Shown one piece after another: positions 3,230 to 59,597 of a stretch of 64,000 nt of DNA. Source of the stretch: Patescibacteria group bacterium (GTDB lineage: Bacteria > Patescibacteriota > Microgenomatia > UBA8517). Location: the NCBI GenBank assembly GCA_035291665.1, contig DATDRP010000006.1:145255-209254 (forward strand), written 5' to 3'. The notes below the pieces were generated by a model. It ran no database searches and was not told the origin of the DNA. It was given only the letters and a program-made list of their open reading frames with translations. Positions within the stretch are counted from its first letter, which is position 1. Each line of letters opens with the position of its first letter. The translations under genes and the position numbers were made by a program.

Positions 3230-3748
3230 GCTTTGGAGAAGGAGTGATCGCCACGTTCAGTTAACATGAACGTGGAGGAAAGTCCAGGCAGCAGTAAGAA
3301 GGGAACGGAGCGTAAGCTCCGACTGGAAGCCAGCTTAGCTGGTGAACAGCTGGTGTCTTTGGTTTGTGAAAATAAACTAAGAACCGAATCTGAATTGACA
3401 GATTTGGAGAGTCACAGAGACGATCCTTCGGTTAAACTTGAGGAATTACGACATTAATCAGCAAGTAACTTTGCGATAGATGACTAATCCTTAGGCACAT
3501 TGAAGGGGTGAAACGCTGATAATCCCACCCGCTGCAACCTCCGACTATCCCACCCTTTTTATTTTTTATAAAGTAAAAAGACAAAGCAGCTTACCTGAAA
3601 TTTATTAGGAATGATAGAAATATCAATTCAATAAAGGCGGGATGAAGCTTGAGGGCAGTCCTGATTAATTCGGGACAACTCCGATTTAATCGGAGTTAGA
3701 CAGATGATCACTTAGAAACAGAACCTGGCTTACTATTCTCCAAAGCCT
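3230..3748 (+). ncRNA. rnpB: RNase P RNA, bacterial type A
   Basis: P1: GCTTTGGAGAA (3230-3240) pairs with TTCTCCAAAGCC (3736-3747). P3 hairpin ccacgttcagttaacatgaacgtgg. P4 5' strand GGAGGAAAGTCCAGGC (~3274-3289) pairs with the P4 3' strand ACAGAACCTGGCTTAC (~3718-3733), including a compensatory A/T change. GGGGTGAAACGCTG resembles the P10/11 GGGTGAAA block; AGACAGATGATCAC resembles the E. coli TAGATGAATGAC block. The 63-aa ORF 3266-3457 inside it is spurious. Confidence 0.75.
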
Positions 3749-3752
3749 TAAG

Positions 3753-3779
3753 AAACCCACAAGTATTTGTGGGTTTTTT
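3753..3779 (+). terminator. Rho-independent terminator after rnpB
   Basis: aaacccac-aagtattt-gtgggttt followed by a T-run. Confidence 0.6.
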
Positions 3780-3843
3780 CATGAATAATGAATAGCAAAG
3801 TTTTCACCGAAGGAGGGGTTTTTACTATTCTCCAAAGCCTTAA

Positions 3844-3870
3844 AAAACCCCGATGGAGTCGGGGTTTTTT
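3844..3870 (+). terminator. Second rho-independent terminator, preceded by a duplicate of the rnpB P1-3' sequence
   Basis: aaaaccccga-tggag-tcggggtttttt. The upstream 19-mer ctattctccaaagccttaa (3826-3844) duplicates 3733-3751. Confidence 0.55.
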
Positions 3871-4189: not shown

Positions 4190-5869
4190 ATGTTATTGTC
4201 GAATGACAAACTTAAGAAGATACTTGTCGGGTCCGGATATATTACGGAACCCGATTTTGATAACGCCGTACAAAGTGCCACTGACCTGGGAAAAGACGTC
4301 TCTGACATCCTGATCTTCAGAGGATTAATCAGCGAGGATGCACTGGGTAAACTAATTTCCCAGCACTTCAATATTCCATACGTTGACGTACGGAGAATGT
4401 TTATATCAACAGAAATCCTGAAGCTGATTCCTGAGAAGTTGGCCAGGGTGTATCGAATGATTCCTTTTGAACTTACGGGGAAAAAACTTAAGGTTGCAAT
4501 GGAAAACCCTGAGGATTTTGAGGGTTTGGAATTCGCAAAACGTCAAACTGGTTTTGAGGTTGAACCGTATTTTGCAAGGTCGGAAGATATTTCAAAAGCG
4601 CTTGGACAATACAAAAAGAATCTGAAAAGCGACTTTGAGAAAATTATTTCTGAAAACCTGAAAAAAGCCAGTGTCAGCGGTAATTTGGAAAAAGCGGCAG
4701 AGGATGTTCCCATTGTTAAAATTTTAAACACAATTTTTGAATATGCTGTTGCTGCTAGGGCTTCCGATATACATATTGAAACACAAACAGATGATGTTGT
4801 AGTCAGATTCAGAATAGATGGAGTTTTACGGGACATCATAAAGTTTCAGCGCGGTATTGAAGAAGCAATTATTGCCAGAATCAAGATTCTTTCTAATTTA
4901 AAAATTGACGAACATCGTATTCCTCAGGACGGAAGATATAAATTCAATATTGATGACGAAGTGGTCGCACTTCGTATTTCTATAATCCCCGGATTTGTTG
5001 GGGAAAACGTTGTCATGAGAATTCTTCGCGAGACCAACCGGCCGTTGAGTTTTGAAGAGCTGGGTATAACCGGAAAAGGCTTGAAAATTCTTAGAGATAA
5101 TACTTCAAAACCACACGGAATGATTCTTGTCACGGGTCCGACCGGATCCGGAAAAACTACGACTCTCTACTCCGTTTTGAATGTCTTAAATACAATTGAA
5201 GTTAAGATCTGTACAATTGAAGATCCGATTGAGTACGGAGTTAACCGAGTAACTCAAATTCAGGTAAATCCAAAAACAGGATTAACTTTTGCCTTAGGCC
5301 TTCGGGCTTTAATGAGACACGACCCGGATATTATTATGGTTGGAGAAATCCGCGATCAGGAAACAGCAGAAATAGCAATTCATTCTGCTTTGACGGGACA
5401 TCTGGTATTATCCACCCTGCACACAAATACGGCATCCGGCGCAGTACCCCGGCTTTTGGACATGGGTGCAGAACCGTATCTTTTGGCTTCAACTCTGAAT
5501 CTGATCGTGGCGCAAAGACTGGTTCGGAGGATTTGCCAGACATGCATTACAAAATACCAACCCGATCCGGAAATAATAAAGCGCATCGAGAAGGATCTTG
5601 GAGCAGACTATATAAAAATAAAATTTTATAAAGGCAAAGGTTGCGATGAGTGTAATAATAAGGGCTATTCAGGACGGGTTGGCATATATGAAATACTACC
5701 CGTTACAGAAAAACTACGGGAAGTAATTTCAAAAAAACCATCTTCCGAAATGCTTGAAGATCAGGCATTAAAGGAAGGGATGGTTTCAATGCTTCAGGAC
5801 GGAGTTGATAAGGTTTCAGCAGGACAAACGACTATTGAAGAAGTCTTTAGAGTAGCAAGCGAAGATTAA
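4190..5869 (+). CDS. pilB: Type IV pilus assembly ATPase PilB (GspE family)
   Basis: N-terminal T2SSE_N-like domain. Walker A VTGPTGSGKTTTLYS, Asp box, Walker B and His box. C-terminal tetracysteine CxxC...CxxC. Confidence 0.9.
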   Translation: MLLSNDKLKKILVGSGYITEPDFDNAVQSATDLGKDVSDILIFRGLISEDALGKLISQHFNIPYVDVRRMFISTEILKLIPEKLARVYRMIPFELTGKKLKVAMENPEDFEGLEFAKRQTGFEVEPYFARSEDISKALGQYKKNLKSDFEKIISENLKKASVSGNLEKAAEDVPIVKILNTIFEYAVAARASDIHIETQTDDVVVRFRIDGVLRDIIKFQRGIEEAIIARIKILSNLKIDEHRIPQDGRYKFNIDDEVVALRISIIPGFVGENVVMRILRETNRPLSFEELGITGKGLKILRDNTSKPHGMILVTGPTGSGKTTTLYSVLNVLNTIEVKICTIEDPIEYGVNRVTQIQVNPKTGLTFALGLRALMRHDPDIIMVGEIRDQETAEIAIHSALTGHLVLSTLHTNTASGAVPRLLDMGAEPYLLASTLNLIVAQRLVRRICQTCITKYQPDPEIIKRIEKDLGADYIKIKFYKGKGCDECNNKGYSGRVGIYEILPVTEKLREVISKKPSSEMLEDQALKEGMVSMLQDGVDKVSAGQTTIEEVFRVASED

Positions 5870-5877
5870 AAAAGCTT

Positions 5878-7086
5878 ATGCCCTTATTTACATACAAAGT
5901 TAAAAATAAAAAAGGAGAATTAATTGAAGATGTCATTCAAGCTGCGGACAGTAAGGATGTCCAGTCTAACCTTCAAGCTGAAGGTTATCAGATTTTGACC
6001 ATCAGAAGGTTGGACTCAAAATTAAGCAGCCTCTCAGCAGGTGGAATTTCAATTTCAGAAAAAGCCGCCTTTTGCAGATTTTTGGCAACCATGTTGCGGG
6101 CGGGTCTTCCGCTTCCTGAAGCAATCGACATCATAAAAGATGATACGAAAAATCGTAAACTTAAAAAAGTACTTTTTGATATCGCATATGAAATTCGAAA
6201 AGGGAAAACCATGTCATCAGTATTGTCAAAGTATAAACGGGATTTTGACCCTGTTTTTCTGACGATGGTTAAGGCAGGAGAAGAATCAGGAACGATTGAT
6301 AAAAGCTTCGATTATCTCGCCAAACAATTATTAATGACATATGAACTAATTCAAAAAGTGAAAGGTGCGATGATGTACCCGATAGTTATAGTTGCTGCTA
6401 TGGGGGCAAATTTTGTTGTCATGCTTGTTTTTGTTTTGCCGAAACTTTCCAATGTTTTTCTTCAATTAAATGTTGAATTGCCTCCTGCCACCCGATTTGT
6501 GATGGAAACCGGCCAATTCATTGGCGACAATACGGTATTAGTTTTGGGAATTTTAATCGGTTTATTGGTTATAGGTTTTGTTCTTTTTACAGTTCAAAAG
6601 ACCCGGGATGCTATAACAGACTTTTTCATGCGCCTTCCTGCAATAAAAGATTTAATTATTCAGATTGACGTTGCCAGGTTTTCAAGAACACTTTCAACAC
6701 TTCTTCGAAGCGGAGTACCGATTATGGTCTGCCTGGAAGTTTGTGCAAATATCATGCGTCAGCCGGCACTCAAGAAACAGGCAAAACTTTTCGGTGAAAA
6801 AGTTGCTGAAGGAAAACAGCTTTCTGAAGTAATTGTAGGAGGTAGTAAAGCGTTTCCGTCAACTGTAATTCAAACAATTAAAGCAGGAGAAAAAAGCGGA
6901 AGTCTGGAAGATGTTCTGGAGGAAATGGCTGAATTTTATGAGAGGGAAGTCGATTACAATCTGAAGAAATTGACGTCTTTACTGGAACCTCTTTTGATGT
7001 TGGTTATCGGGGTAGCGGTGGGTGCGATGGTAATAATTATGATAACACCGATTTATTCTCTGGTCGGCGGGCTTGATAAGTTCTAA
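5878..7086 (+). CDS. pilC: Type IV pilus inner-membrane platform protein PilC (GspF family)
   Basis: Two GspF repeats with 3 TM. Typical C-terminal LLEPLLMLVIGVAVGAMVIIMITPIYSL. Confidence 0.9.
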   Translation: MPLFTYKVKNKKGELIEDVIQAADSKDVQSNLQAEGYQILTIRRLDSKLSSLSAGGISISEKAAFCRFLATMLRAGLPLPEAIDIIKDDTKNRKLKKVLFDIAYEIRKGKTMSSVLSKYKRDFDPVFLTMVKAGEESGTIDKSFDYLAKQLLMTYELIQKVKGAMMYPIVIVAAMGANFVVMLVFVLPKLSNVFLQLNVELPPATRFVMETGQFIGDNTVLVLGILIGLLVIGFVLFTVQKTRDAITDFFMRLPAIKDLIIQIDVARFSRTLSTLLRSGVPIMVCLEVCANIMRQPALKKQAKLFGEKVAEGKQLSEVIVGGSKAFPSTVIQTIKAGEKSGSLEDVLEEMAEFYEREVDYNLKKLTSLLEPLLMLVIGVAVGAMVIIMITPIYSLVGGLDKF

Positions 7087-7136
7087 ACGATTCGGTTCAA
7101 AATTCAATACCCCTCCGAATATATATAAAATTTCTC

Positions 7137-7853
7137 ATGAAGGAAGAAAAAGAAATTGATATCAGAAAATTGTTAAGCAATCCGGTTTATATTGTTTTGA
7201 TTGTAATTGGTTTAATCATAATTATTTTTGTTGTTTATATATTAGTCGGAAGAAATAGGAGTCTTAATGACGCACCGATAAAAGAAGGCCAAATCATGAT
7301 TCAAAAAGGAGACGAAGTTATCACAATTAATAGCAACGGACTTGTGGAGTATAAATCGAAAGACAAAGTCTATTATGAAACCTGGGATACCTCAAGAATA
7401 TCTTCATTTTTTACGCTGATTGAAAATAAAGCCCGTGAATCTTTAAAAAATCCGGATCAGAAAAAATGCGTATATAAAATTTATCTTTTCCTTGACGGAA
7501 AACTGGTTAATTTCTGTACAGATGACGAAGAAATTGCGGATACAGTTGAGGAAATATCTAACAAATATTCGGAAGAAGATCTTAGCGGTTACTTTCAGGA
7601 CGGGGAGGGATCTGGTGGAGACGGTGATGAGGATTTTGATGGTACGATTCATTTTCCTACACCAACACCCACAATTTCATTGATCTCACCTGTCCCGACA
7701 CCGACATCAACTCAATCCTCCGGCGGATCACAAACAAATTATCCGCCAGTGAATGCCGGCTGCGATACATGGAGTGTGAGTATTGTCGGGGGAAGAGCTG
7801 TAATTTCGAATACCTACTGCACAACCCAGCCAACGGCCACCCCGACGCCCTGA
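7137..7853 (+). CDS. Hypothetical membrane-anchored protein with PT-rich linker and Cys-containing C-terminal module
   Basis: N-terminal TM (VYIVLIVIGLIIIIFVVYILV). Acidic stretch DGEGSGGDGDEDFDG. PTPTPT linker. C-terminal CDTWSVSIVGGRAVISNTYC. Located directly after pilC. Confidence 0.5.
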   Translation: MKEEKEIDIRKLLSNPVYIVLIVIGLIIIIFVVYILVGRNRSLNDAPIKEGQIMIQKGDEVITINSNGLVEYKSKDKVYYETWDTSRISSFFTLIENKARESLKNPDQKKCVYKIYLFLDGKLVNFCTDDEEIADTVEEISNKYSEEDLSGYFQDGEGSGGDGDEDFDGTIHFPTPTPTISLISPVPTPTSTQSSGGSQTNYPPVNAGCDTWSVSIVGGRAVISNTYCTTQPTATPTP

Positions 7854-7864
7854 CGTTATTGTTC

Positions 7865-9295
7865 TTACTGGGCTTTTTCTTCAGTCCAGGATATGAATTC
7901 GTACTGACCCGAAGTTGGAAAATAAGGTGGAGGATTGTATAAAACATTTGTATCGTAATTGATCTCCCTCTGACGGAATCCGGACTCCGGACCTTCGCCG
8001 AAATTCCAATAGGACTTGAAATAAGATATGACTGAACCGTTTAATATTAGTTTTTGTTTAACAGCCTCATCCGTTCCCCCGCACCAATTGAAATAACCGT
8101 GACGTATTATTGTTCCCTGTTGTGTTAAAAGTACACCGTCGACCTGAAACTCCTCGGGTACGCTTCTTGTAAAATAAATATCGTTTTGGGATACGATACC
8201 GATAACATCGCTGCCGTCGTAGGCGGTATATTTTATGCTATTTGGTATATATATTACTGAACTGCTCGATTTGAGGGGAAAATCAACTGCAGCTACTGTA
8301 AGTCTTCCCCTGACCGTTCCTTCAATCCACAAGTCATCTTCAGCAAAAATAATCGGGACATCAACTACATTATAAGTACCCAAGAAGGTTTCGGAGCCAA
8401 TAATCTGGTAACTTTTCCGGCATCCTCCTATTCCGAATTCACCCAATCCCTGTCCGGGAACTGAATAAGCTTTCGTATAATCCGTAGAAATAACTTTATT
8501 AATTCTGACCGTTCCGTCACTCAGAAATAGTAAGTGATAGCCATCCGCGTTTGAATTATCAAGGTATAGTCCGTCGGATTTTGCGAAGTTTCTCATGTTT
8601 GAAAAGTCAACCGCAACGCTGTCAAAATCAACAAATGGAACGGGAAATTGCCAAAGTGCCTGGTCCCCGCCGGATCCCCATACACCATCCTTCGGTTCCG
8701 GGGGGTGACAGCCGGTCTCAGACCCGCACATGTATTCAAGCTGGGCACTGGAGACTATGGACGTATTTGTTCCATCCATTCTTATACCGTTGTTTGAATG
8801 TATTTTTCCGTTGACAACTGATCCTGATCCATACCAAGTACTTCCGTTTGACAAGAAAGAATAGATCGCCATTGAGGGAATTCCGTATTGAGCTTTAATT
8901 TTACGTTTTATTTTTGGATATTGATCGCTCCACGCAGTTGATTCGATGGTGACTATGGTTGAACCCTCCTGTGGAGGTGTTATTTCTAGGCTGTAATATC
9001 CCATTAAGGTTCCTTGGGGATCTTTGTATTCATGAACAAACGGGCCGTAGGGTACAGGTGTCACAGGAGTTCCCGTGCCATCGGTAAAATCATCAGGATC
9101 ATGTGCAAGATGCCATTTATAGTAATTTATACCGGCTTCTGAAATATTGAGGGCGCGTTCAGATGCAATTTGCCTGTTTGAGCTGTCGACTTGAACACCC
9201 AAAACGAACAACATGCCATAGATTATTATTATGAACGAGGCCGTAATAATAAGAATGGCCGGTGTTGCAAAACCGTTGTGTGTATTTTTTAACAT
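7865..9295 (-). CDS. Large pilus-associated protein, PilX-like N-terminus (putative minor pilin or tip-associated factor)
   Basis: N-terminal hydrophobic helix (NGFATPAILIITASFIIIIYGML) followed by RALNISEAGINYY, which resembles the PilX_N consensus (R..A...AEAG). Last gene of the minus-strand minor-pilin operon. Confidence 0.5.
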   Translation of the reverse strand: MLKNTHNGFATPAILIITASFIIIIYGMLFVLGVQVDSSNRQIASERALNISEAGINYYKWHLAHDPDDFTDGTGTPVTPVPYGPFVHEYKDPQGTLMGYYSLEITPPQEGSTIVTIESTAWSDQYPKIKRKIKAQYGIPSMAIYSFLSNGSTWYGSGSVVNGKIHSNNGIRMDGTNTSIVSSAQLEYMCGSETGCHPPEPKDGVWGSGGDQALWQFPVPFVDFDSVAVDFSNMRNFAKSDGLYLDNSNADGYHLLFLSDGTVRINKVISTDYTKAYSVPGQGLGEFGIGGCRKSYQIIGSETFLGTYNVVDVPIIFAEDDLWIEGTVRGRLTVAAVDFPLKSSSSVIYIPNSIKYTAYDGSDVIGIVSQNDIYFTRSVPEEFQVDGVLLTQQGTIIRHGYFNWCGGTDEAVKQKLILNGSVISYFKSYWNFGEGPESGFRQREINYDTNVLYNPPPYFPTSGQYEFISWTEEKAQ

Positions 9296-9345
9296 TTTCT
9301 GGTTTACATTAAGTATAAAATAATTGCAAACGTATAGGATGCTAG

Positions 9346-9957
9346 CTAAAGGTTATCTTTTAACATCCTGATGTTTGATATTGATTCAACTTCATAACCA
9401 TTAGCGGTATCACCGTTTTTGACAAGGAGATAAATTTTTACACTTCTGGTATCAGCAAGTCGATTAGTCATCCCGAGGGGGTTATTGATAATATCTTCCG
9501 GCCAATCGGCGTTGTAATAGTAAAAAACGGGAGTTTCGTTATAGATATTTTCGTTAAGCGTAATTACTGTTTCTGTATCCTGGTTATACTGTGCAGGATA
9601 ACCGGAAGGTTCAATAACACCTTTGTATAAATTGTGTTCATTTAAAAAATAACGGACTTTTTCTGTGCTTCCGTCAAGATCGATATCGGAGTAAAAACCG
9701 ATACTTTGGTCATCTACGTTGAACAAAGAATATGCTCCGTTGTCGCTGGTTTTTGCAGCCCGAATCTCTTTTATAAAAGTTGAAATAATCAAGTTTGCCT
9801 CATCAACGGATTTATAGCTTCTGGTTACCAGTATTTGGTTTTGGGTAAGAATATATTGAAGAGATACCAAACCAATTCCGATAAATGACAGGATTGTTAC
9901 GGCAATTAAAACCTCGATTAAAGAAATTCCTTTTTGTTTTGTTTTTATAGACATCAT
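9346..9957 (-). CDS. Prepilin-type N-terminal cleavage/methylation-domain protein (minor pilin, PilW/FimT-like)
   Basis: MMSIKTKQKG|ISLIEVLIAVTILSFIGIGL: a class III signal peptide with Gly at -1 and Glu at +5. Confidence 0.7.
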   Translation of the reverse strand: MMSIKTKQKGISLIEVLIAVTILSFIGIGLVSLQYILTQNQILVTRSYKSVDEANLIISTFIKEIRAAKTSDNGAYSLFNVDDQSIGFYSDIDLDGSTEKVRYFLNEHNLYKGVIEPSGYPAQYNQDTETVITLNENIYNETPVFYYYNADWPEDIINNPLGMTNRLADTRSVKIYLLVKNGDTANGYEVESISNIRMLKDNL

Positions 9958-11297
9958 TAAATTGGACTTAGGACAATAGTTTCATTTTTATACCCGTAGA
10001 CATCAACTGTTCCGTTAAAGTTGAAATATCCTGATTTGGTAGCTTCGATTGAATAAATTTTTTTCTGCAGGTCCGAAAAAAAGACTTGACCAAAATCAAT
10101 ATTATCTTCAAGTCCGCTCGAAGCAGTGGCATTGAAAACTGGTGCCGTATTATATAAACGTGCGGAAACTGAGGCGATCTGGTTTTCAGATGGATCTAGA
10201 AAAGTGATTAACACACTGTCGCTTGTATGATCTGTGACTGCAAAATTAACAGTATTTACGGTATCCGCAAGAACTTTTATCGGCAGGAACGGGTTAATAG
10301 CTTCAATGTCTCCGACGGAAGAATCTATTGTGATATGGTAGTTGTCCCACTCCAAATCCGGTAATTGAAAATGACCGGATGCGTCGGTAGCGAATTGTTC
10401 AGTATATTTATAAATCGGTTGATCGCTAGTATCTGTTCCGATAGTTTTTTCTCCCTGTATGGTGAATTCAACATTGCCTAAGGCTCCAAAACCGCTGACT
10501 GCGTCATCATGGGAAAATACATCTAATGTGCTGGTTTTATCAATGGAGAAAGAAATTTCTGTTAGCTGTCCCTGGAGTACGGTAAGATTAGGTTTGTTGG
10601 GATTTTCAACCTCTGTGGGAGAATAAGTCTGTTCTGAACTGTATCCCGATTTCGAAGTTAAGACTTGATAGCAAGGTGTTGTACAAACTGGAGCACCGGG
10701 TAAAATTACCCGACCGTTATCTGCTGTTAAAAGTGTCACATCTATTTGAGGAGTTGTGGTTGTTGCAATAATGTGTACGCTGGCTTGGTTTACAGGCTGA
10801 GCGTCGGAGTTTATAACGATGATGGATAAAGTTCCTCCGGTAACTGTTGATTCAATACCCGATGGCGATATGTCAGTAACCAACCTGATCGGGTTTCTTT
10901 GAGAGGTGATTTGCCCTTCCCATGAGGCATCAATTGTAATTCTTTTGTAATCAGTTGCCAATAAATCTGCCGGTGCTTGCTGGTCGAACGGATCATCAAT
11001 ATAAAGGATTGTTGTTTTAATATAATAATTTGCACCGTTGATATTTATCGTTTCATTCTGAGGAATATTACCCGGGGGAATTCCTCCGATTGTGCCGATA
11101 GAATCATAAGGGAGATTTCTTATCGTCTCCATCTTTTCTTGAGCGAGGTGTTTTGCATTAATACGGGAACTGTTATAGGTACTCACAGAATAAGAAGTTG
11201 TAACAAGAGTAAAAAGCGCCTGAGCAAGAATCGAAAATAAGGCTAACGAAATCAAAACACTTATCAAAACAGATCCTCTACTGACAATAGATTTCAT
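9957..11297 (-). CDS. PilV-like pseudopilin/minor pilin with long C-terminal domain
   Basis: Internal Met 43 of the track ORF gives MKSIVSRG|SVLISVLISLALFSILAQALF, a short basic leader plus hydrophobic helix typical of prepilins (no Glu at +5). The longer form (start 11423) would have a 50-aa leader, which is implausible. Confidence 0.55.
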   Translation of the reverse strand: MKSIVSRGSVLISVLISLALFSILAQALFTLVTTSYSVSTYNSSRINAKHLAQEKMETIRNLPYDSIGTIGGIPPGNIPQNETININGANYYIKTTILYIDDPFDQQAPADLLATDYKRITIDASWEGQITSQRNPIRLVTDISPSGIESTVTGGTLSIIVINSDAQPVNQASVHIIATTTTPQIDVTLLTADNGRVILPGAPVCTTPCYQVLTSKSGYSSEQTYSPTEVENPNKPNLTVLQGQLTEISFSIDKTSTLDVFSHDDAVSGFGALGNVEFTIQGEKTIGTDTSDQPIYKYTEQFATDASGHFQLPDLEWDNYHITIDSSVGDIEAINPFLPIKVLADTVNTVNFAVTDHTSDSVLITFLDPSENQIASVSARLYNTAPVFNATASSGLEDNIDFGQVFFSDLQKKIYSIEATKSGYFNFNGTVDVYGYKNETIVLSPI

Positions 11298-11468
11298 GGG
11301 CAGGTACATTGATATAAAGTATAGCATTTGGCATAATGGTAGAAAGAAGATGCTCAAAACTATTGTTTTGGACGTTTTGGTTTGGTTAGAAAAAATATAA
11401 TTAGGTAGTATGGTTATTTTCAAATTTCTTAATATCTTAGTATCTTAATATCTAATGCAAGTCCTGCC

Positions 11469-12863
11469 ATGGTAAGAAGATCATTCGTTTCAATATATTT
11501 CTTGAATAGTCAGTTCCAGCTGGTTATTCTTTCCGGATCAAAGAAAAAAGTTCAAAAGTATACAACGATTGATTTACCCGAAGGACTGATTTTGAATCAT
11601 GAAGTTCAAGATCCGAAACTCCTTGGTGAAATTCTTAAGAAAGTTTGGGCTAAATACAAAATCAAAGAAAAAAGTGTGGGAATAGTCGTTCCGGAGTTTT
11701 CCACATTCACAAAAAGCTTTAACCTGCCCGATCTTGCTGAAGACGAACTTGATGAAGCAGTAAGATGGCAATCATTAGACTATATTCCGTTGAATCAAAA
11801 TGAGATGGTGCTGGATTGGAAGGTAATTAAACGTACGGAAGCTTCTGTTCAGGTGTTGGCAGTTGCAATAAAGGACAATATTCTCAAAGGTTATGTTGAT
11901 GCAACAGCCCTAGCCGGTCTTTACCCCTTAGTTGTTGAAACACCTTCAATTTCCCTGACGCGTATTAGCGGTGAGAAGGGTGAAAAAATTATTATATTTT
12001 TCTCATTCGATGAAGTTATTATTGTCTTGGCTGATGGCCAAAGTATAATTTCGAGTTCGGTGCTGCATTCCTCCGCTTCGGCACAGGACATCGTACGGAC
12101 CTCCCAGCGGATGACTGCACACTATCAGGATATTTCCATCAAAGAAGTTTATCTTGGAGGTGTAATTTCATCTCAGGAAATTGTTAATCAAGTGGTAACG
12201 GGCTTAAACCTCAAAGCGGTAAAAATTGGGATTAAGGAAATTTCATTTAATGACTCGGAACTTCAAAAATATCTGATTCCGATTTCGCTTCAATTCAAAG
12301 ATCCTGCTGAACCATCAAGTTCAGAAACAATTAACTTATTGCCGGGCGCCGTTGTTTCAAAATATGAAAAGAAAAGATTAAGTGTTCAACTTTGGAGTTT
12401 GATGATGATTACGACTGTGATAATAGTCGTAAGTTTTTTAGCACTTCTGGGAAGTTATATGTACATTATTCAGAACCAGTCTTTTTACAACAATAAAAAT
12501 GAATCCGAAGTTGCAACGTACGGGAAAAACAAAGACGCATTGGAACAGATAAAAACCATCAATTTATCGTCCGATAGGGTTAAAAGTATTTTTAATCTTA
12601 TGCTGTATCCGCAGGATGTTTTAAACCTTGTAAAGAGTGCTGATCAGGAAGGTATACGTGTGATAAATTATAAAATTGATTTTGAAAAAAGGACAGCGCT
12701 CATACAGGGTGTTGCATCAACCAGAGATAATTTGCTGGATTTTAAAACCAGCCTGGAAAAAATGGAAGGAATTTCCGAAGTAAAGCTTCCCCTTTCAAGT
12801 TTTGAAAAAGAAACGGATTTAGAATTCAATATTTCGTTTACGTTTTTGCGTCAAAAAAAATAA
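11469..12863 (+). CDS. pilM: Type IV pilus assembly protein PilM fused to a PilN-like C-terminal membrane segment
   Basis: Actin-like PilM region (VGIVVPEFSTFTKSFNLPDLAEDELDEAVRWQSLDYIPL) followed by a single TM (LWSLMMITTVIIVVSFLALLGSYMYII) and a ~140-aa periplasmic tail, in one ORF. Confidence 0.7.
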   Translation: MVRRSFVSIYFLNSQFQLVILSGSKKKVQKYTTIDLPEGLILNHEVQDPKLLGEILKKVWAKYKIKEKSVGIVVPEFSTFTKSFNLPDLAEDELDEAVRWQSLDYIPLNQNEMVLDWKVIKRTEASVQVLAVAIKDNILKGYVDATALAGLYPLVVETPSISLTRISGEKGEKIIIFFSFDEVIIVLADGQSIISSSVLHSSASAQDIVRTSQRMTAHYQDISIKEVYLGGVISSQEIVNQVVTGLNLKAVKIGIKEISFNDSELQKYLIPISLQFKDPAEPSSSETINLLPGAVVSKYEKKRLSVQLWSLMMITTVIIVVSFLALLGSYMYIIQNQSFYNNKNESEVATYGKNKDALEQIKTINLSSDRVKSIFNLMLYPQDVLNLVKSADQEGIRVINYKIDFEKRTALIQGVASTRDNLLDFKTSLEKMEGISEVKLPLSSFEKETDLEFNISFTFLRQKK

Positions 12864-12869
12864 ATTAAT

Positions 12870-13487
12870 ATGAATGGAAAAAAGAGTGATGAACAACAAT
12901 TGAAAGCTAATAACAGCGGTGAACGGGATATGAAGCAGGTTAAAGAGAAAGTTCAAAAACCGAAAAAGACGATAAATTTTCTTTTGGTCTTCCTCTTTAT
13001 TAACTTGATTATTTTATTGGGCTCTTTATATCTGATTTATGATCTGCCTCGAAAGGCTGAGGTTTTGAAATCCGCAAAAATCGAAGCATTAAAGATTGAA
13101 GAAAGCAGCAAGGTGGATTTAACAGGTCTAGAGATAATCCAAAATAAAAAAAACTGGGAAATATTAAAAAGCTATTTCCCGGATGAAGTTGGTGTTATCA
13201 AATTTATTACCGATCTGGAAACTTTGAAGAAGAATGAAATTATTAAGGACATGTCATTCGTCAGCCAGGATGCCGTTAGGGATAAAACCGGAGCTTTGGG
13301 AATTCCGTTTATAATGGAAATTGAAGGAAGTTGGGACAAAGTAGACGCAGCTTTAAAGGATTTTTATGATTTACCGTATTTGGTGAGAGTGATTAATGTT
13401 GACGCAACTGTCCTTGAGGATGGGAGTGTAAACTTTAAATTTGGGGGTTTTATATATGTCTCAGAGAGCCTTGACAAAAATAGATAG
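12870..13487 (+). CDS. PilO-like pilus assembly protein (bitopic)
   Basis: Basic N-terminus, one TM (INFLLVFLFINLIILLGSLYLIY), a coiled-coil-prone region and a periplasmic domain. The position after pilMN is the canonical PilO slot. Confidence 0.45.
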   Translation: MNGKKSDEQQLKANNSGERDMKQVKEKVQKPKKTINFLLVFLFINLIILLGSLYLIYDLPRKAEVLKSAKIEALKIEESSKVDLTGLEIIQNKKNWEILKSYFPDEVGVIKFITDLETLKKNEIIKDMSFVSQDAVRDKTGALGIPFIMEIEGSWDKVDAALKDFYDLPYLVRVINVDATVLEDGSVNFKFGGFIYVSESLDKNR

Positions 13488-13689
13488 TTTTTTCTTTCTG
13501 TTCATTGGGGTAATGATAGTATTGGCTATCTTTGTTGTTGTGGCTTTCAAGGAAATATTTTCATCCATTCGAACGAGTTCCGATGTGACCGTTTCACTTT
13601 CGGAAAATGAATTGAAAGTTGATAAAAATAAATTACAGGAAGCTGTAAGTTTGATTGAATCTAAGGATGTTGTAGAATTAAAAAAGTAA
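13456..13689 (+). CDS. Hypothetical small membrane protein (possible PilP-like); overlaps previous gene
   Basis: 78-82 aa with a single TM (FFFLFIGVMIVLAIFVVVAF). Exact start uncertain. Confidence 0.25.
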   Translation: MSQRALTKIDSFFFLFIGVMIVLAIFVVVAFKEIFSSIRTSSDVTVSLSENELKVDKNKLQEAVSLIESKDVVELKK

Positions 13690-14147
13690 TGAAAAATAAA
13701 TTTAAAGCCTTTACTTTAATTGAACTTTTGATTGTAATTTCGATTATCGGACTACTGGCAACAACAATGGTCATTGCCATTAACCCTTCAAAACAATTAG
13801 CAAAAGCCAGGGATGGACAGAGAGAAGGTGATGTCTATTCAATTTTTTCCTATGTTCAGCAATACAAATCAGAACACAATGGAACATTACCCGATACTGA
13901 CGGAGATCCGGAAACGAATAATTTTCCCACAAGCTTGACTTGTATTGGATCGTCGGGAGGGTGCTTTAACCTTGCAGGAGCCGGTGACGATGATGAATCA
14001 ATAGTGCCTGACTATGCAGCAGCGCTCCCAACTGATCCGAAGACAGGAAGTGGAGTAAATACAGGTTATTTGATTATGGTTGATGCTTATGGCCACATTA
14101 CCGCATCCGCCTCAGGTGAAACAAAGACAATCAGCATAACGAGGTAG
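13689..14147 (+). CDS. pilA: Type IV major pilin
   Basis: MKNKFKA|FTLIELLIVISIIGLLATTMVIAI: a class III signal peptide with Phe at +1 and Glu at +5. Two Cys near the C-terminus (C...C disulfide loop). Confidence 0.85.
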   Translation: MKNKFKAFTLIELLIVISIIGLLATTMVIAINPSKQLAKARDGQREGDVYSIFSYVQQYKSEHNGTLPDTDGDPETNNFPTSLTCIGSSGGCFNLAGAGDDDESIVPDYAAALPTDPKTGSGVNTGYLIMVDAYGHITASASGETKTISITR

Positions 14148-15170: not shown

Positions 15171-16766
15171 ATGAATACAAATATTTTCGTCCAGATTGTA
15201 CTGGTATCGATTAATGCATTTGGGTTAGTCCTCGCCTGGTGGATTCTTCGTGGCGGAAACTCTAAACAATTGAAATTATGGTTCTCTCTTATGACAATAT
15301 TTATACTTTTGTGGGCTAATTTTTCTTATTTTGGTTCGACCGCCAGGAGTGTGTCTACTGGACTATTGTTTTACAGATTAAATTGGGCGGCGGTTTCGTT
15401 ATTTCTACCGTCATTTTTTTATTTTTTTGTAATTTATTTTCTTCTCAAAAGCCACTTGGCTAGTAAAATCGGAATTATAATATTTATTTTATCAATAATA
15501 TTTTTTATTCTTTCGCTTTTTACAGGATTGATTATTAAAGATGTAGTTCAACAAAGCTGGGGTATGGGGATAGTATTCGGACCCCTTTCTGATTATTTCA
15601 ATATCTTCTCAGCAATAGTTGCCATAATTGTTATTACCTATAGTGTGCAAAGTTATAAATCATTATCTAAAGAAATGAAAGTGAAACTAAATTATTTTCT
15701 GGCTGGTATTTTTGTCTTTATAACTGCAAATTTGGTATTTAATGTTGGCTTACAAGTAATTTTCCAGAGTGTAAGATTTCAAATCTATGGAGATTTTTCT
15801 GCGATATTCTTTTTAGTTTTTACAGCCTATGCGATCGTGAAGTATGAACTTTTTGATATAAAAATTATCGCAACTGAAGGTTTAACAGCAGTATTATGGA
15901 TAGTCTTACTTGCTAAAACGTTTGTATCAGAATCTCCGGTACAACTACTAATAAATATTCTTATATTTCTTTTAACCGTAATTTTCGGAGTGCTTTTAAT
16001 AAAAAGTGTCACGCGTGAGGTTAAACAAAGACAACTTCTCGAAGAACTCAATAAAAAGTTGAAAGAGCTTGACAAACAGAAAGATGAATTTGTGAGTATG
16101 GCGGCTCACGAACTTCGTTCCCCGTTAACCGCCATCAAAGGATATGTTTCGATGATTATGGAAGGCGATACAGGTGATATTCCCGAAAAAGCCAGACAAT
16201 ATCTTGCCGATAGCATGGCGGTTACTGACCGGCTTGTTCGTTTGGTCAATAATATGCTCAATGTTTCAAGAATAGAGGAAGGACGGATTGTTTATCAGAT
16301 GGAAGAGACCCATCTTATACGTGCCGTTCAGGAGGTTTATTATTCGTATCGGATTGAAGCAGAAAGAAAAGGGATTGAAATTGTAATGAATATACCCAAC
16401 GGTTTGGATGATGTTGTGTACGTGGACCCCGACAGAATTCGTGAGGTGATCGGGAATATAGTAAGTAATGCTGTAAAGTTTACGGAAAAAGGGAAAATTG
16501 AAATTTCAATAGGGAATCCCCGGAAGGGTGTGGTCAGGGTGGATGTTTCCGACACAGGTCCCGGAATTACCGAAGAAGAGCAAAAAAAATTATTTGTAAA
16601 GTTTTATCGTGCAGAGTCTACAGCCGGTAAAACTTTCGGTACCGGACTCGGGCTTTATATAACAAAGCTTCTGATTGATAATTTCGGTGGTGTGATCGGA
16701 GTTGAGTCACAAATTGATAAAGGAACAACCTTCTGGTTTGAATTACCTGTCAGAAAGCAGGTATAA
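15171..16766 (+). CDS. Membrane sensor histidine kinase
   Basis: ~8 N-terminal TM helices. HisKA H-box EFVSMAAHELRSPLTAIKGY. HATPase_c N, G1 (DTGPGI) and G2 (GTGLGL) boxes. Confidence 0.85.
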   Translation: MNTNIFVQIVLVSINAFGLVLAWWILRGGNSKQLKLWFSLMTIFILLWANFSYFGSTARSVSTGLLFYRLNWAAVSLFLPSFFYFFVIYFLLKSHLASKIGIIIFILSIIFFILSLFTGLIIKDVVQQSWGMGIVFGPLSDYFNIFSAIVAIIVITYSVQSYKSLSKEMKVKLNYFLAGIFVFITANLVFNVGLQVIFQSVRFQIYGDFSAIFFLVFTAYAIVKYELFDIKIIATEGLTAVLWIVLLAKTFVSESPVQLLINILIFLLTVIFGVLLIKSVTREVKQRQLLEELNKKLKELDKQKDEFVSMAAHELRSPLTAIKGYVSMIMEGDTGDIPEKARQYLADSMAVTDRLVRLVNNMLNVSRIEEGRIVYQMEETHLIRAVQEVYYSYRIEAERKGIEIVMNIPNGLDDVVYVDPDRIREVIGNIVSNAVKFTEKGKIEISIGNPRKGVVRVDVSDTGPGITEEEQKKLFVKFYRAESTAGKTFGTGLGLYITKLLIDNFGGVIGVESQIDKGTTFWFELPVRKQV

Positions 16767-16778
16767 TTACAACACAGT

Positions 16779-17207
16779 ATGATGCAGGATGATTCTCAAG
16801 GATTGGGAGCACCCGCGGTTACAATACCGCAGTCGCAGGACCGTAAAAAAATTCTTCTTATCGAAGACGATCCGTTTCTTCTTCAAATGTATAATGACAA
16901 ATTTGTTAATGAGGGATATGAGGTAAATGTTGCCCATGATGGACTCGAAGGGCTAAAAATGCTCAATGAGAAGCAGGTGGACTTGGTACTTTTGGATATT
17001 TTGATACCGAAACTTTCGGGAGTTGATTTATTGACCAAAATAAAAGAAGACCCGAAGTTGCAAAAAATGCCGATTATTGCCCTTACCAATCTTTCAAACG
17101 TAAAAGAGGAACAGGATGTCAAAGCAAAGGGTGTGAATGAATATTTAATAAAATCTGATTATACCCCCACGCAAGTTGTTGAAATTGTGAAGAAATATCT
17201 CCCGTGA
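16779..17207 (+). CDS. Single-domain response regulator (CheY-like receiver only)
   Basis: KKILLIEDDPFLLQMY...VDLVLLDILIPKLSGVDLL...MPIIALTN: receiver-domain Asp pocket and conserved Lys. No output domain. Confidence 0.8.
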   Translation: MMQDDSQGLGAPAVTIPQSQDRKKILLIEDDPFLLQMYNDKFVNEGYEVNVAHDGLEGLKMLNEKQVDLVLLDILIPKLSGVDLLTKIKEDPKLQKMPIIALTNLSNVKEEQDVKAKGVNEYLIKSDYTPTQVVEIVKKYLP

Positions 17208-17242
17208 CAGCCTTTTTTAGAAAGTGAGTCTTAAATGGAAAT

Positions 17243-17848
17243 TTACTTCGGACGCGTGAGAACAAAAACCAAACCAATTATTGCGACGAGAGCAAGACCC
17301 GATGCAAGTCCCGCCCGCTTTAACCCGAGTATAACTTTATCGCGAACTGAGGATTTTTCAGGTGTTGGTGTGGGGGATTCTTGACTTTCTTCACCTGTTG
17401 CTTCGGGATTCTCCGGGAGATTTTCGGTTGGCTTTTCCAAAAACGTAATTGGCTTGACACTCCCTCTCATAACAACTTCACCCGCAGGTAGTTTAGTTTT
17501 TGCATTTTTTTCAGTTGTGATAAAAAGACTTGCAAAAGGAACTTTTGATACGTATTCACCCTTGCCAAGTCCGATTTGCCCAAGTGCGAAGGGATCGCCC
17601 CCGGCTACCGGGTTTGCCCAGAGAATATAGGTGTATATCGATCCATCAACCGGGTAAAGGATGTTTCGGCATGAAACAATTACACGGTATGAACCGGTTT
17701 GCATTTGTAGTGATGCGGCGAAACATTTGTAATCAAGTTCTGTGGTACTGCGAAGTTCAAAAGTGCCATCGGATGCATGAACGACCGTAAACCCTAAGAG
17801 TAAATATATAGAAAAACCAAAAATGAAGGTTTTTAAAATTTTTAACAT
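17243..17848 (-). CDS. Hypothetical secreted protein with C-terminal membrane anchor
   Basis: Signal peptide (IFGFSIYLLLGFTVVHASD), PTPTPE linker, C-terminal TM plus basic tail (GLASGLALVAIIGLVFVLTRPK). Confidence 0.5.
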   Translation of the reverse strand: MLKILKTFIFGFSIYLLLGFTVVHASDGTFELRSTTELDYKCFAASLQMQTGSYRVIVSCRNILYPVDGSIYTYILWANPVAGGDPFALGQIGLGKGEYVSKVPFASLFITTEKNAKTKLPAGEVVMRGSVKPITFLEKPTENLPENPEATGEESQESPTPTPEKSSVRDKVILGLKRAGLASGLALVAIIGLVFVLTRPK

Positions 17849-17991
17849 ATTATTAATTTCTTAAGATTTATTTTATCAAAATATATTCCAAAATAACACT
17901 AATTAGTATTAATTGGTAACTCGACCGAGACAGCATTTTCAAATTTTTGTAGAATTGAAAACAAGCACTGGTTGCTTTAAGATGTACATAT

Positions 17992-18423
17992 ATGCCTGAT
18001 CCTGTCCAACAGACCCCAGCGCCCGTTCCCGGAAAAACTGTAGATGTCAGAAACATCCCCAACCTTCTTCTGGTTGAAGATGATCCTGTGCTTTCGAAAA
18101 TGTACACCGAAAAATTTAAATTCGAAGGTTTTAATGTATTAACCGCCATGAACGGAGAAGACGGATTGAGGCTTGCACTATCAGAAAATATTGACCTTAT
18201 AATATTAGATCTGATGCTTCCCCGGTTGTCAGGAAGTGAACTTTTAGCAAAGTTGCGTCAGGATGCAAAAGGCAGAAATACAAAAGTAATTGCTCTGACA
18301 AACCTGGCCGAACAAGAAGAAAGGCAAAAAGTTATGCAGCTTGGAGTTCTGGATTATCTAATAAAAGCGATGCAAACTCCGGAAGAAGTGGTGGAAAAAG
18401 TAAAAAAGTACCTCAGTACATAA
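17992..18423 (+). CDS. Single-domain response regulator (CheY-like receiver only)
   Basis: LLLVEDDPVLSKMY...IDLIILDLMLPRLSGSELL...KVIALTN. Paralogous to 16779-17207. Confidence 0.8.
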   Translation: MPDPVQQTPAPVPGKTVDVRNIPNLLLVEDDPVLSKMYTEKFKFEGFNVLTAMNGEDGLRLALSENIDLIILDLMLPRLSGSELLAKLRQDAKGRNTKVIALTNLAEQEERQKVMQLGVLDYLIKAMQTPEEVVEKVKKYLST

Positions 18424-24229: not shown

Positions 24230-25762
24230 ATGTTGGCAAAAATTTCTTCCGGGGCAACGGTGGGACTTAATGCAACACTCATTGATGTTGAAGTAGATAT
24301 TGCAAATGGCTTACCGACTTTTACTATAGTTGGGCTTCCTGATAAGGCAGTAGAGGAAAGCCGCGAACGTGTCCGCTCCGCTCTGAAAAATTCCGGCGCA
24401 GACTTTCCGATGAGCAGGATCACAGTCAATCTGGCACCTGCCGATCTTCCGAAAGCCGGTCCTGCATATGACCTTCCGATTGCTTTAGGGATATTGATTG
24501 CGTCTGAGCAAATAAGACCGGATGTCAAGAAATATTTATTTTATGGTGAGCTTTCATTGGACGGCAACCTCCGCCATACAAACGGAATATTACCTTTGGC
24601 GTATTTGGCCAAAGAGAAGAAGTTTGACGGCGTTTTTATACCCAGAATTAATGATCAGGAAGCCTCTGTAGTGAGAGGAATAAAAGTTTATCCCGTAGAA
24701 TCTCTTCTTGAGCTGGTAAGATTTTTCAGCGGAACTGTAAAAATTATACCTTCCAAGCAAATTTCATTATCGAGTCTTCTGAAAACAGTTGAAGCAGAAT
24801 TCGATTTTTCAGAAATTATAGGTCAGGAACAAGCCAAACGGGCAATGGAAATTGCCGCGGCAGGGAACCACAACATCTTTATGAAAGGTTCGCCCGGTTC
24901 CGGAAAAACCATGCTATCCCGGGCGCTTCCGGGAATTTTGCCGGTTCTAACTGAAGACGAAGCCCTGGAAGTAACAAAAATTTATTCGATAACGGGGAAT
25001 CTTCCTCCCGGACAGGCGATCGTTACAACCCGGCCATTCCGTAGCCCTCATCACACCACCAGCAGGATAGGGCTAATTGGAGGAGGAACAAATCCGTCAC
25101 CCGGCGAGGTTTCGCTCGCACATCGAGGAGTTTTATTTTTGGATGAGTTTCCCGAATTCCCAAGGAATGTTTTGGAATCCCTGCGTCAGCCGATGGAGGA
25201 TGGGATTGTGACAATCTCGCGGGCAAAAGGAACAGTTTCATATCCGGCGAAATTTTTACTGGTTGCAGCATCAAATCCATGTCCTTGCGGCTATTTTGGC
25301 GATGCCAAAAGACGCTGTAAATGTCTTCCTGGAACGATTTCCCGATATCAAAAAAGAGTTTCAGGACCGATTCTCGACCGGATCGATATTCATGTTTCGG
25401 TTCCAAGCGTTGATACACAAAAACTTATTGACATCAAGAGTAACAGCAAGAGCAAGAGTTCAAAAGAAATACAAGAAAAAGTTCAGAAAGCAAGAGACAT
25501 TCAGATAAAAAGGTTTAGAGGAACGAGAATAAGATCAAATGCAGAGATGAGTACAAAAAATGTCAAAGAGTTGGCTCCCCTATCTCAAGAATGTCGTACA
25601 ATGATGATATCTGCAACTGCAACAATGGATTTGACCGCAAGATCGTATTTTAAAGTTGTGAAGATTACCCGGACGATCGCCGACTTGGAAGGTGCAACCG
25701 ACATTTCCACAACCCATTTGGCTGAAGCTCTTCAATACCGTCCGATGCAGGACGATTTTTAA
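24230..25762 (+). CDS. comM: YifB/ComM family Mg-chelatase-like AAA+ ATPase
   Basis: N-terminal Lon-like/ChlI domain (GLPTFTIVGLPDKAVEESRERVRSAL), Walker A GSPGSGKT, Walker B LFLDEF, C-terminal Mg_chelatase_C. Confidence 0.85.
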   Translation: MLAKISSGATVGLNATLIDVEVDIANGLPTFTIVGLPDKAVEESRERVRSALKNSGADFPMSRITVNLAPADLPKAGPAYDLPIALGILIASEQIRPDVKKYLFYGELSLDGNLRHTNGILPLAYLAKEKKFDGVFIPRINDQEASVVRGIKVYPVESLLELVRFFSGTVKIIPSKQISLSSLLKTVEAEFDFSEIIGQEQAKRAMEIAAAGNHNIFMKGSPGSGKTMLSRALPGILPVLTEDEALEVTKIYSITGNLPPGQAIVTTRPFRSPHHTTSRIGLIGGGTNPSPGEVSLAHRGVLFLDEFPEFPRNVLESLRQPMEDGIVTISRAKGTVSYPAKFLLVAASNPCPCGYFGDAKRRCKCLPGTISRYQKRVSGPILDRIDIHVSVPSVDTQKLIDIKSNSKSKSSKEIQEKVQKARDIQIKRFRGTRIRSNAEMSTKNVKELAPLSQECRTMMISATATMDLTARSYFKVVKITRTIADLEGATDISTTHLAEALQYRPMQDDF

Positions 25763-55163: not shown

Positions 55164-55172
55164 CACTTGAGA

Positions 55173-58100: not shown

Positions 58101-59597
58101 CGGACCGGTTATGAATACAATTGGGCAAGGACAGGTGCCGAAGCAGCAGATGTAGTTTTTGCCGGCCAACATACAGGCGTTGCTTCCCAGGCACAGTCGG
58201 GTTTAGTCAATATTGTTTATTTCCAGATAGGAAACAACGATTTTGCATATTACCGAGACGGTGCAGATATATATAACGGTGCTCTTTCAGGACAGGCTTT
58301 AACCGATAAAATTAATGCAATAATTTCAAATATCTCAACTTCTCTCGATACTGTTTTGGATGCAGATCCAAACGTAAAGGTAATTCTTGGAAATATTGCA
58401 GATCCTGGACTATCACCTTATTGGGCAGCACAATTCCCTGATCCGGTAAAAAGGCAGTTGGTTACCGATGCAATAAACCAAACTAATGCGGGTATAACAA
58501 ACCTGCTTCTTACCCGGAGCAGAGTTACTTTATTTGATCAAATGGCTTTTGCAAACGAGCTTATGTCTAAGGTTGTTAATGGTAATTTGGTGATAGGCGG
58601 AGAAAATATCAGCTTAACTCAAAATGGCGATGAACCCCACCATGCAATTTTGGGAGATAATATCCATGGCGGGACAGTAATGGAAGGCTTAGTTGCCAAC
58701 GGTTTGATTCCTCTGGTAAATCAGACAACCGGATCGCAGATTCAATTATTTTCTGAAACCGAAATTTTGAATAATTCTGGTATCTTTCCCAGTCCGACTC
58801 CGACTCCCACGGTGATTCCTACTCCGACACCTACTCCGGTGTTTGAAACTCACTATATATCGGTAAATCCGGACGGAGTTATCGGAGGGGTAGCTGTTGC
58901 CGGAGAAGATATTCTCAAATTCAATACCGTAACTGGTTTGTATGAAACATACTTCGACGGTTCGGATGTTGAGCTTTCGGGAACATCGATTGATGCGTTT
59001 ACCTTTCTTCCCGGAGGCGACATGATTCTGTCTTTTTCCGGAAGCGTTTCAATAACTGGGTTGGGGACAGTCGCTTCGCAGGACTTGGTCAGGTTTACTC
59101 CGCTTTCGACAGGTAATAGTACAAGCGGATCTTTTAGTTTATATTTTGACGGATCAGATGTTGCCTTAAGCAATTCGTCGGAAAATATAGATTCAGTATC
59201 GGTTTTGGAAAATGGGGATATTCTCTTATCAACAAATGGCAGTATTTCCGTAACCGGAGTTTCAGCAAACGATGAAGATATTATCGAATTTACTCCGACT
59301 TCACTCGGTCCGGCAACTTCGGGAAGCTGGTCACTTTATTTTGATGCATCTGATGTTGGATTATCAAGTACGAGCGAAGATATCGATGCTTTGAGTATCG
59401 CGTCATCGGGAGATTTTTATCTTTCAACAAGCGGCAGCTTCAGTGTTACGGGTGTCTCCGGTCAAAATAATGATGTCTTTATCTTTGATCCGTTAACTTT
59501 GGGAGGGGATTCGTCAGGAACTTTTTCCCAGCCGATTTATTTGGACGGAAGCGCTTTCGGATTATCGGGTTTCAACGTTACGGGATACTACAAATAA
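55173..59597 (+). CDS. Giant secreted multidomain protein: signal peptide, N-terminal domain, PT linker, beta-propeller (PQQ/BamB-like repeats), PT linker, SGNH/GDSL hydrolase, PT linker, 4x ~60-aa C-terminal repeats
   Basis: Signal peptide [24 protein letters not shown]. Three (PTPTPTE)n linkers. WKWSWNG / [13 protein letters not shown] / [14 protein letters not shown] repeats. SGNH blocks (MSDSSSDE; IGNNDF; ..DNIHG). Four repeats of ...SGS(F/W)[11 protein letters not shown]... The track ORF starts at TTG 55167. Confidence 0.8.

Follow-up and report, generated by a model that had tools for sequence, protein, structure and literature searches.

Loci for type IVa pili (T4aP) that lack a secretin in bacteria of the candidate phyla radiation (CPR), modular minor pilins, and fusions of PilM to PilN have all been published previously. 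Here we describe a locus at positions 4190-14147 of a 64,000-nucleotide stretch of DNA (the 'window') from a Patescibacteria group bacterium (contig DATDRP010000006.1), which we judge, with a probability of roughly 0.8, to encode the core of a secretin-less T4aP machine of Woesebacteria-like Patescibacteria, wherein three minor pilins form a tip complex. CPR genomes are known to carry co-localized PilB, PilC, PilM, PilN and PilO without PilQ (PMC6744442), and T4P-1 and T4P-2 of the Saccharibacteria representative TM7x are further examples (PMC12206443). These systems, which belong to the same phylum, share with our locus pilB, pilC, pilM/N/O, the pilins and the absence of PilQ, and their minor pilins carry extra C-terminal domains as they do here. 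However, TM7x has separate pilM, pilN and pilO genes and includes pilT and pilD in locus 1, whereas here PilM and PilN form one protein and pilD and pilT are unlinked. Likewise, the modular pilins of TM7x bear jelly-roll or beta-propeller domains, in contrast to the ComZ-type solenoid predicted for the present locus.

ComZ, a competence pilin of Thermus thermophilus HB27 (PDB 6QVI), has a GspK-like pilin domain into which a triangular solenoid is inserted, and the closest relative of this solenoid is an ice-binding protein (PMC6561018). On steric grounds, such a solenoid protein has been argued to have room only at the tip of the pilus, the site at which ComZ and the GspI-like pilin PilA2 together bind DNA (PMC6561018). 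A 476-residue protein of our locus is predicted to have the same two-domain make-up, although its host is monoderm-like and there is no secretin to pass. PilA2 is a small pilin, whereas the GspI-like protein of our locus bears three extra predicted beta-sandwich domains. Other relevant sets of minor pilins are the GspI-GspJ-GspK complex at the pseudopilus tip of the type II secretion system (PDB 3CI0) and its T4aP counterpart, PilV-PilW-PilX. In comparison, the locus is without a GspH/FimU-like fourth member, and added domains make its I-like and K-like proteins three to four times larger. The modular pilins PilB and PilC of Streptococcus sanguinis carry vWA and lectin modules, rather than the beta-solenoid and transthyretin/CnaB-like domains predicted here.

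CPR bacteria depend on other cells, and pili are essential in the few species that have been cultivated. The present locus shows that a module of three minor-pilin genes is kept unchanged in one large CPR lineage, and the largest member of this module is predicted to have the fold of the only structurally characterized pilus-tip DNA receptor. This offers a specific protein to express and test for binding to DNA or cell wall, and a sizeable family of 'hypothetical proteins' that can be annotated as pilins. Otherwise, the locus conforms to what is already known of CPR pili.

All open reading frames (ORFs) of the locus are present at the coordinates given in a preliminary description of this DNA, and the public gene call for the identical contig has matching lengths (559, 402, 238, 476, 203, 446 and 464 amino acids). 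The features, with the evidence for each, are as follows.

4190-5869, plus strand: PilB-type extension ATPase with an N-terminal MshEN domain (T2SSE 9.5e-132, MshEN 6.1e-16)
5878-7086, plus strand: PilC platform protein (T2SSF 1.6e-55, in two stretches; GspF/PilC NCBIfam matches)
7137-7853, plus strand: probable accessory membrane protein with a PT linker (conserved architecture, no family)
7865-9295, minus strand: 476-residue ComZ/GspK-like pilin, proposed tip cap (predicted fold)
9346-9957, minus strand: 203-residue canonical minor pilin, G↓ISLIE, where the arrow marks the processing site (N_methyl 1.9e-6)
9957-11297, minus strand: 446-residue modular pilin with a degenerate prepilin N-terminus, G↓SVLIS (CarboxypepD_reg 4.9e-8, predicted fold)
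11298-11468, no strand: divergent intergenic region that separates the minor-pilin operon from pilMN-pilO-pilA (one promoter-like site per strand)
11469-12863, plus strand: PilM-PilN fusion, 464 residues (hidden Markov model (HMM) and profile matches to both halves)
12870-13487, plus strand: PilO (PF04350 matches of orthologues)
13441-13689, plus strand: small protein with a single transmembrane (TM) segment, 82 residues from a TTG start (positional conservation, no family)
13689-14147, plus strand: major pilin, 152 residues, MKNKFKA↓FTLIELL (N_methyl 3.6e-7)

A survey in which one genome per GTDB species was scanned yielded 28 related loci, among which 15 are labelled Woesebacteria, one is labelled 'Patescibacteria group' and the other 12 have record titles of the generic type 'uncultured Gammaproteobacteria/Pseudomonadales'. 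The CPR origin suggested in the preliminary description is corroborated by an identical PilMN protein that is named 'pilus assembly protein PilM [Patescibacteria group bacterium]'. Relatives of this PilM-like protein for which a source is named are assigned to Woesebacteria, Patescibacteria group or uncultured bacterium, and all are about 470 residues long. Every related locus that extends far enough exhibits the same gene order: pilB, pilC and (the PT-linker protein gene); on the opposite strand the genes for the 476-, 203- and 446-residue proteins; and then pilMN, pilO, (the small TM gene) and the pilin gene.

Minor pilins and the proposed tip complex

A motif scan of the whole 64 kb revealed a single T2SSE ATPase, along with exactly four N-termini of the prepilin type. 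The products of 9346-9957 and 13689-14147 carry predicted class III signal peptides, as judged from N_methyl scores above the cut-off. The 476- and 446-residue proteins each exhibit a prepilin-like leader and a hydrophobic helix without glutamate at position +5 (Glu5). Cleavage is predicted for all four. The motif scan and these leaders uphold the earlier proposal that the minus strand encodes three divergent prepilin-like proteins, including a canonical G↓ISLIE minor pilin.

The 476-residue protein begins with the leader MLKNTHNG↓FATPA. Across its family the N-terminus reads G↓(S/F)xTPA, wherein the proline at +4 is invariant and glutamate never occurs at +5. Mean column identity in the family is 67%, with four invariant cysteines and the motifs WHLAHDP, HSNNGIRMDG, CGSETGC and PPPYFPTSGEYEFISW. 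Residues H62, H65, H166, D174, E193, H254, E302, E319 and H399 are invariant as well. This is a large family: the scored candidates form 2769 clusters at 90% identity, and at E<=1e-3 there are 1465 clusters at 50% identity. Members are called 'hypothetical protein' where the source names them and have zero Pfam domains, and the names of distant clusters are almost all empty. The 476-residue protein itself matches no Pfam or NCBIfam family at E<=0.1. Thus, the PilX_N-like identity originally assigned to it finds no support at the HMM level, and the predicted fold points to a GspK/ComZ-like protein instead.

This fold was modelled with AlphaFold2 from 34 sequences (mean predicted local distance difference test score, pLDDT, 86.6; predicted template modelling score 0.78). 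The model starts with a 55-residue N-terminal helix and a four-strand sheet (residues 83-138); a long beta-solenoid follows, and residues 466-473 form a last conserved strand. This layout is compatible with a solenoid placed between the penultimate and the last strand of the pilin sheet. The predicted chain combines a GspK-like pilin domain and an ice-binding-protein-like beta-solenoid. Among solved structures, the best relatives are ComZ and GspK, with ComZ on top by two methods. In Foldseek, ComZ was the sole strong match (E 1.5e-10, probability 1.0, global template modelling score 0.33). A literature search found no publication linking ComZ with Patescibacteria within the library searched, and the ComZ-like assignment of this unannotated family would constitute a modest new annotation.

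The 476-residue protein could also act as an enzyme on the pilus that opens the host envelope, such as a depolymerase or polysaccharide lyase similar to phage tailspikes, but we consider this quite improbable. Separately, we observed that a 1789-residue protein from a metagenome-assembled genome of Candidatus Magasanikbacteria, named 'FISUMP domain-containing protein', matches positions 21-266 of the 476-residue family profile. This match suggests that a different CPR lineage has built the N-terminal pilin-plus-solenoid start into far longer proteins.

The gene for a GspI-like pilin is located two genes upstream of the 476-residue protein gene. Its 446-residue product had been called PilV-like. 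That it is a pilin with a weak PilV match at its N-terminus stands, and the assignment can now be refined to a GspI-like pilin domain followed by three transthyretin/CnaB-like beta-sandwich domains. Beside the CarboxypepD_reg match, its sequence gives only weak ComGE/PilV N-terminal matches. In the predicted structure (pLDDT 86.8), residues 2-60 form a helix and residues 81-143 a small sheet, beta-sandwiches are located at 154-251, 256-355 and 361-442, and the best solved relatives are GspI/XcpV. Given that several orthologues have glutamate at +5 and some match N_methyl, the N-terminus in this genome, which has lost Glu5, most resembles a decayed prepilin signal.

Between these two genes lies that of the 203-residue pilin, whose start overlaps the stop of the upstream 446-residue protein gene by 1 nucleotide. 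Among its orthologues, 21 of 22 match N_methyl and nothing else, and its best NCBIfam match (PRK10557, 5e-6) covers only the N-terminus. We therefore consider it GspJ/PilW-like by position and size only.

Read in the direction of transcription, the minus-strand operon encodes a GspI-like protein, a canonical pilin of about 200 residues and a GspK/ComZ-like protein. Given that this order matches gspI-J-K and pilV-W-X, we propose that the three proteins form a priming and tip complex. In the proposed mechanism, a prepilin peptidase encoded elsewhere would cut after the Gly or Ala at -1, and the three minor pilins would be the first to come together on PilC, as a priming complex that would finally occupy the tip of the pilus. 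The 476-residue protein is expected to cap the tip because it is without Glu5 and carries a bulky beta-solenoid; the tip pseudopilin GspK is reportedly also without Glu5 (Korotkov and Hol, 2008). The 446-residue protein would project its three Ig-like domains, PilB would then add the 152-residue pilin underneath, and a PilMN-PilO ring would couple the ATPase with the extracytoplasmic side. The tip complex could thereby serve as the ligand-binding end, for DNA or for a conserved host-surface component, while retraction would need an unlinked PilT.

Several findings weigh against this interpretation, and readers should consider them when judging its merits. The resemblance of the 476-residue protein to ComZ is a fold-level match only, with 14% identity and the low global score noted above. 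No sequence-level homology was found between the two, in that a profile of 34 family members searched against all PDB sequences gave no ComZ match at E<=10; our claim is therefore one of the same architecture and not of orthology. For the 203-residue pilin, a sequence-based assignment to GspJ/PilW was rejected since only the N-terminal methylation motif is detectable. All the pilins are acidic (isoelectric points (pI) 4.4-4.8), which lends no support to DNA binding. Processing and retraction are assumed, given that neither PilD nor PilT is found in the window or in the 10 kb around the 28 related loci. Finally, the idea that the products of 7865-9295 and 9957-11297 form a tip complex has been carried forward in part: both yield confident monomer models, and from these models and the gene order we infer the complex.

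The PilM-PilN fusion and other machine parts

Every machine part gave HMM or profile matches, which bears out the original view of the region as a type IV pilus locus. The Pfam scan covered 50 window ORFs, or nearly all those of 140 residues or more. PilB scores 561 bits with the PilB model TIGR02538 (2.4e-168) and 552 bits with GspE. These and the PilC matches are strong, yet they fall under the equivalog cut-offs. The pilC gene starts 8 nucleotides after the pilB stop. A Firmicutes-type ComG competence pilus was considered and rejected, since ComGA (265 bits) and ComGB (151 bits) score far under PilB/GspE and GspF/PilC, and PilM, PilN and PilO are present.

Two further observations concern PilB. 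Residues 1-70 (4190-4400) resemble the MshEN motif that binds cyclic di-GMP (NF053729, 22 bits versus a cut-off of 38), and visual inspection shows other residues in place of the Arg and Gly of the RLGxx motif in each of the two repeats, such that cyclic di-GMP binding may be lost. In the related genome of Woesebacteria GW2011_GWA1_38_8 (L005:2973-4683), pilB is divided between ORFs of 403 and 159 residues, which reflects a frameshift or assembly error.

The 464-residue product of 11469-12863 had been described as a single-ORF fusion of PilM and PilN. It comprises a PilM actin-like part (residues ~1-285), the sequence INLLP (287-292), a TM helix (310-328) and a PilN-like extracytoplasmic part (~330-464). 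The window sequence alone matches only PilM (PilM_2 5.3e-17, residues 18-165) and has no PilN match in Pfam or NCBIfam. The preliminary description had named missing PilM/PilN HMM matches as grounds for dismissing its reading, but at the family level both halves are recognized: of the orthologues scanned singly, 26 of 26 match PilM_2, 16 of 26 match PilN (best 1e-7) and 4 of 26 match T2SSL. The family profile also matches solved PilM structures from M. xanthus (3jc8, 5.7e-24) and Thermus (2ych, 5.8e-19), and its positions 288-429 match residues 5-145 of M. xanthus PilN (3jc8_N) at 1.4e-3, so the PilN match begins exactly at the INLLP motif. Within the segment TINLLP, residues N289, L290, L291 and P292 are invariant in the alignment of 26 orthologues. 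INLLP is the conserved N-terminal motif with which PilN binds PilM, as seen in PilM:PilN structures from Thermus and Pseudomonas. On these sequence comparisons, we regard the fusion as genuine, with both PilM and PilN in one ORF.

This fusion is not new in kind, because the PilMN fusion of C. difficile likewise has a cytoplasmic actin-like PilM, a single TM helix and an outer domain similar to PilN, in an organism with no outer membrane (PMC6916266). GspL shares the same PilM-TM-PilN type of architecture. The retention of the diderm-type INLLP between the two halves is mildly notable, given the suggestion by Pelicic that the PilN of monoderms may rely on another motif, at its C-terminus (PMC6916266).

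The next gene starts 6 nucleotides after pilMN and encodes a protein with a TM segment at 38-56 that had been called PilO-like. This assignment holds at the family level: PF04350 reaches only 0.036 for the window protein, and 9 of 22 orthologues match PilO (best 7.9e-8). A profile of the orthologues searched against the PDB gave no PilO match (best FliL 0.011, Amuc_1100 0.29), and therefore the identity comes from the Pfam matches of the orthologues. An assembly sub-complex of PilM, PilN and PilO is specific to T4aP (PMC6916266), and all three are found at our locus by HMM searches with orthologues, with PDB profile matches for PilM and PilN in addition.

As the preliminary description had noted, the secretin, PilD and PilT are not in the window. 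Peptidase_A24, PilT and secretin models gave zero matches in the 50 scanned ORFs, and the 10 kb around each of the 28 related loci contains no second ATPase, no A24 active-site motif and no secretin. PilD and PilT must therefore be unlinked, if present. The absence of the secretin agrees with published CPR genomes (PMC6744442).

Some of these matches also fit a type II-secretion-like pseudopilus that would export proteins without forming a surface pilus. The GspE and PilB scores are nearly equal, GspF is the best match for PilC and GspG for the major pilin, GspI- and GspK-like folds are predicted, the fusion has the GspL architecture, and T2SSL matches occur among its orthologues. Nevertheless, we judge such a system extremely unlikely. 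No GspD secretin or GspC family match is present among the 50 ORFs, the PilM_2 and PilN models fit more orthologues than does T2SSL (26 and 16 versus 4), CPR cells have no outer membrane to cross (PMC6744442), and pili have been seen on CPR cells (PMC12206443).

The major pilin has GspG/ComGC N-terminal matches in NCBIfam and one conserved cysteine pair. The alanine at -1 that had been read from its sequence is real, and represents a minority variant (6 of 26 aligned sequences) of a family in which this residue is mostly glycine. Upstream of this pilin gene, the small TM protein has an internal ATG at 13456, a TM segment at 17-35 and a stop that overlaps the pilin ATG by 1 nucleotide. The 1-nucleotide overlaps seen here and in the minor-pilin operon suggest translational coupling. 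By blastp, the small protein occurs at the same position in 16 of the 28 loci, and it belongs to no Pfam or NCBIfam family. The membrane protein with a PT linker at 7137-7853 is as first described, and has a TM segment at 19-37, a domain of about 110 residues, an acidic/Gly-rich stretch, the PT linker and a C-terminal Cys...Cys mini-domain. An identical architecture is found at the same position in 17 of the 28 loci, with no Pfam, NCBIfam or PDB relative. Both of these proteins are probably accessory parts of the machine.

The divergent region at 11298-11468 has one promoter-like site per strand, and the number of sites there equals the shuffled expectation. Promoter and terminator scans of the locus likewise gave counts equal to the shuffled expectation, and a tandem-repeat scan found no repeats.

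Conservation and candidate functions

Median identities between the window proteins and those of related loci are 66% for PilB (compared with 25 loci), 58% for the major pilin, 56% for the 476-residue protein, 55% for PilC, 47% for the 446-residue protein, 44% for the 203-residue pilin, 39% for PilMN and 35% for PilO. Thus, conservation of the pilins equals or exceeds that of the motor parts. The pilins of Saccharibacteria are reported to be poorly conserved (PMC12206443), whereas those described here are conserved like PilC.

One possible function is that of a host-attachment and/or twitching pilus, whose tip would bind a conserved host-surface component by using the CnaB/transthyretin-like domains and the beta-solenoid as adhesin modules. 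Both the adhesin-type domains and the data from Saccharibacteria (PMC12206443) favour this function, to which we tentatively assign somewhat less than even odds. However, host-specific adhesins usually diverge fast, which is at odds with the PilC-like conservation of the large pilins, and no host is known for this lineage.

The same conservation would fit a pilus that recognizes a universal ligand such as DNA. In a dedicated competence pilus, the 476-residue protein would be a functional analogue of ComZ that binds extracellular DNA at the tip, and retraction would feed ComEC, so as to serve transformation or nucleotide scavenging in a cell unable to make nucleotides. The status of ComZ as the top solved relative by two methods, with the two-domain make-up described for it (PMC6561018), is in keeping with this function, as are the similar medians of the 476-residue protein and PilC and the presence of comM, recJ and recX in the neighbourhood. 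Furthermore, Saccharibacteria show natural competence, and com genes occur in CPR (PMC10633639). Despite these points, we consider such a role unlikely. In the absence of sequence homology to ComZ, its DNA-contacting lysines K98 and K233 cannot be mapped onto the 476-residue family, which is acidic (median pI 5.3), and the linkage to comM and recJ is loose (10-23 kb). Moreover, T4P genes are essential in Southlakia and comEC is not, which indicates that CPR pili have a role beyond competence (PMC10633639).

A related proposal is that the 476-residue family is a conserved tip receptor of Patescibacteria pili, the structural counterpart of ComZ, for a universal ligand that may be either extracellular DNA, taken up for competence or nucleotide scavenging, or a conserved cell-wall component. 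Although we regard this as doubtful, if true it would explain the unusually high conservation of the family by the universality of the ligand, and would provide the first concrete candidate for what CPR pili grab.

Neighbouring genes

The 1-kb 'empty' gap upstream of pilB had the appearance of a regulatory leader for the pilus operon, but this was ruled out because the gap holds the gene for a bacterial class A RNase P RNA (3232-3748, plus strand). The RNA matches RF00010 at 76.7 bits (gathering score 100; E 3.4e-23) over the full model (1-367) in 517 nucleotides, and therefore carries insertions. Short blocks are 90-95% identical in related loci. A 63-residue ORF called on this RNA in the public record (3266-3457) is probably spurious. 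The last ~25 nucleotides of the region (ttactattctccaaagccttaa) occur twice within 3730-3870 (plus strand), ~93 nucleotides apart, and each copy of ttactattctccaaagccttaa is followed by what reads as a GC-rich hairpin and a run of T nucleotides. This arrangement may represent a small duplication in which the 3' end of the RNase P RNA was copied along with its terminator.

The comM gene, noted earlier as lying 10 kb downstream of the pilus locus, is real (24230-25762, Mg-chelatase-like, 1.3e-93), and nothing links it to the pilus. The recJ gene is located at 36738-38438. RecX (L029:848-1468) and RNase Y are encoded in the 3.3 kb just upstream of the window.

After the pilin gene, the interval 15171-18423 encodes a multi-TM histidine kinase (531 residues), a receiver-only regulator (142 residues), a conserved 201-residue secreted or anchored protein and a second receiver-only regulator. 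In many related genomes the kinase and response regulator also lie on the downstream side of the pilus locus, following a variable non-pilin insert (L003-L025), and they could regulate the pilus. Farther downstream, a 1476-residue ORF (55167-59597, plus strand) has a G+C content of 0.42-0.47 versus ~0.38, a signal-peptide-like N-terminus and a Ser/Thr-rich start. Its sole family match is a weak beta-propeller (2.2e-6, far under the cut-off), and its sequence features suggest that it is probably a large surface protein.

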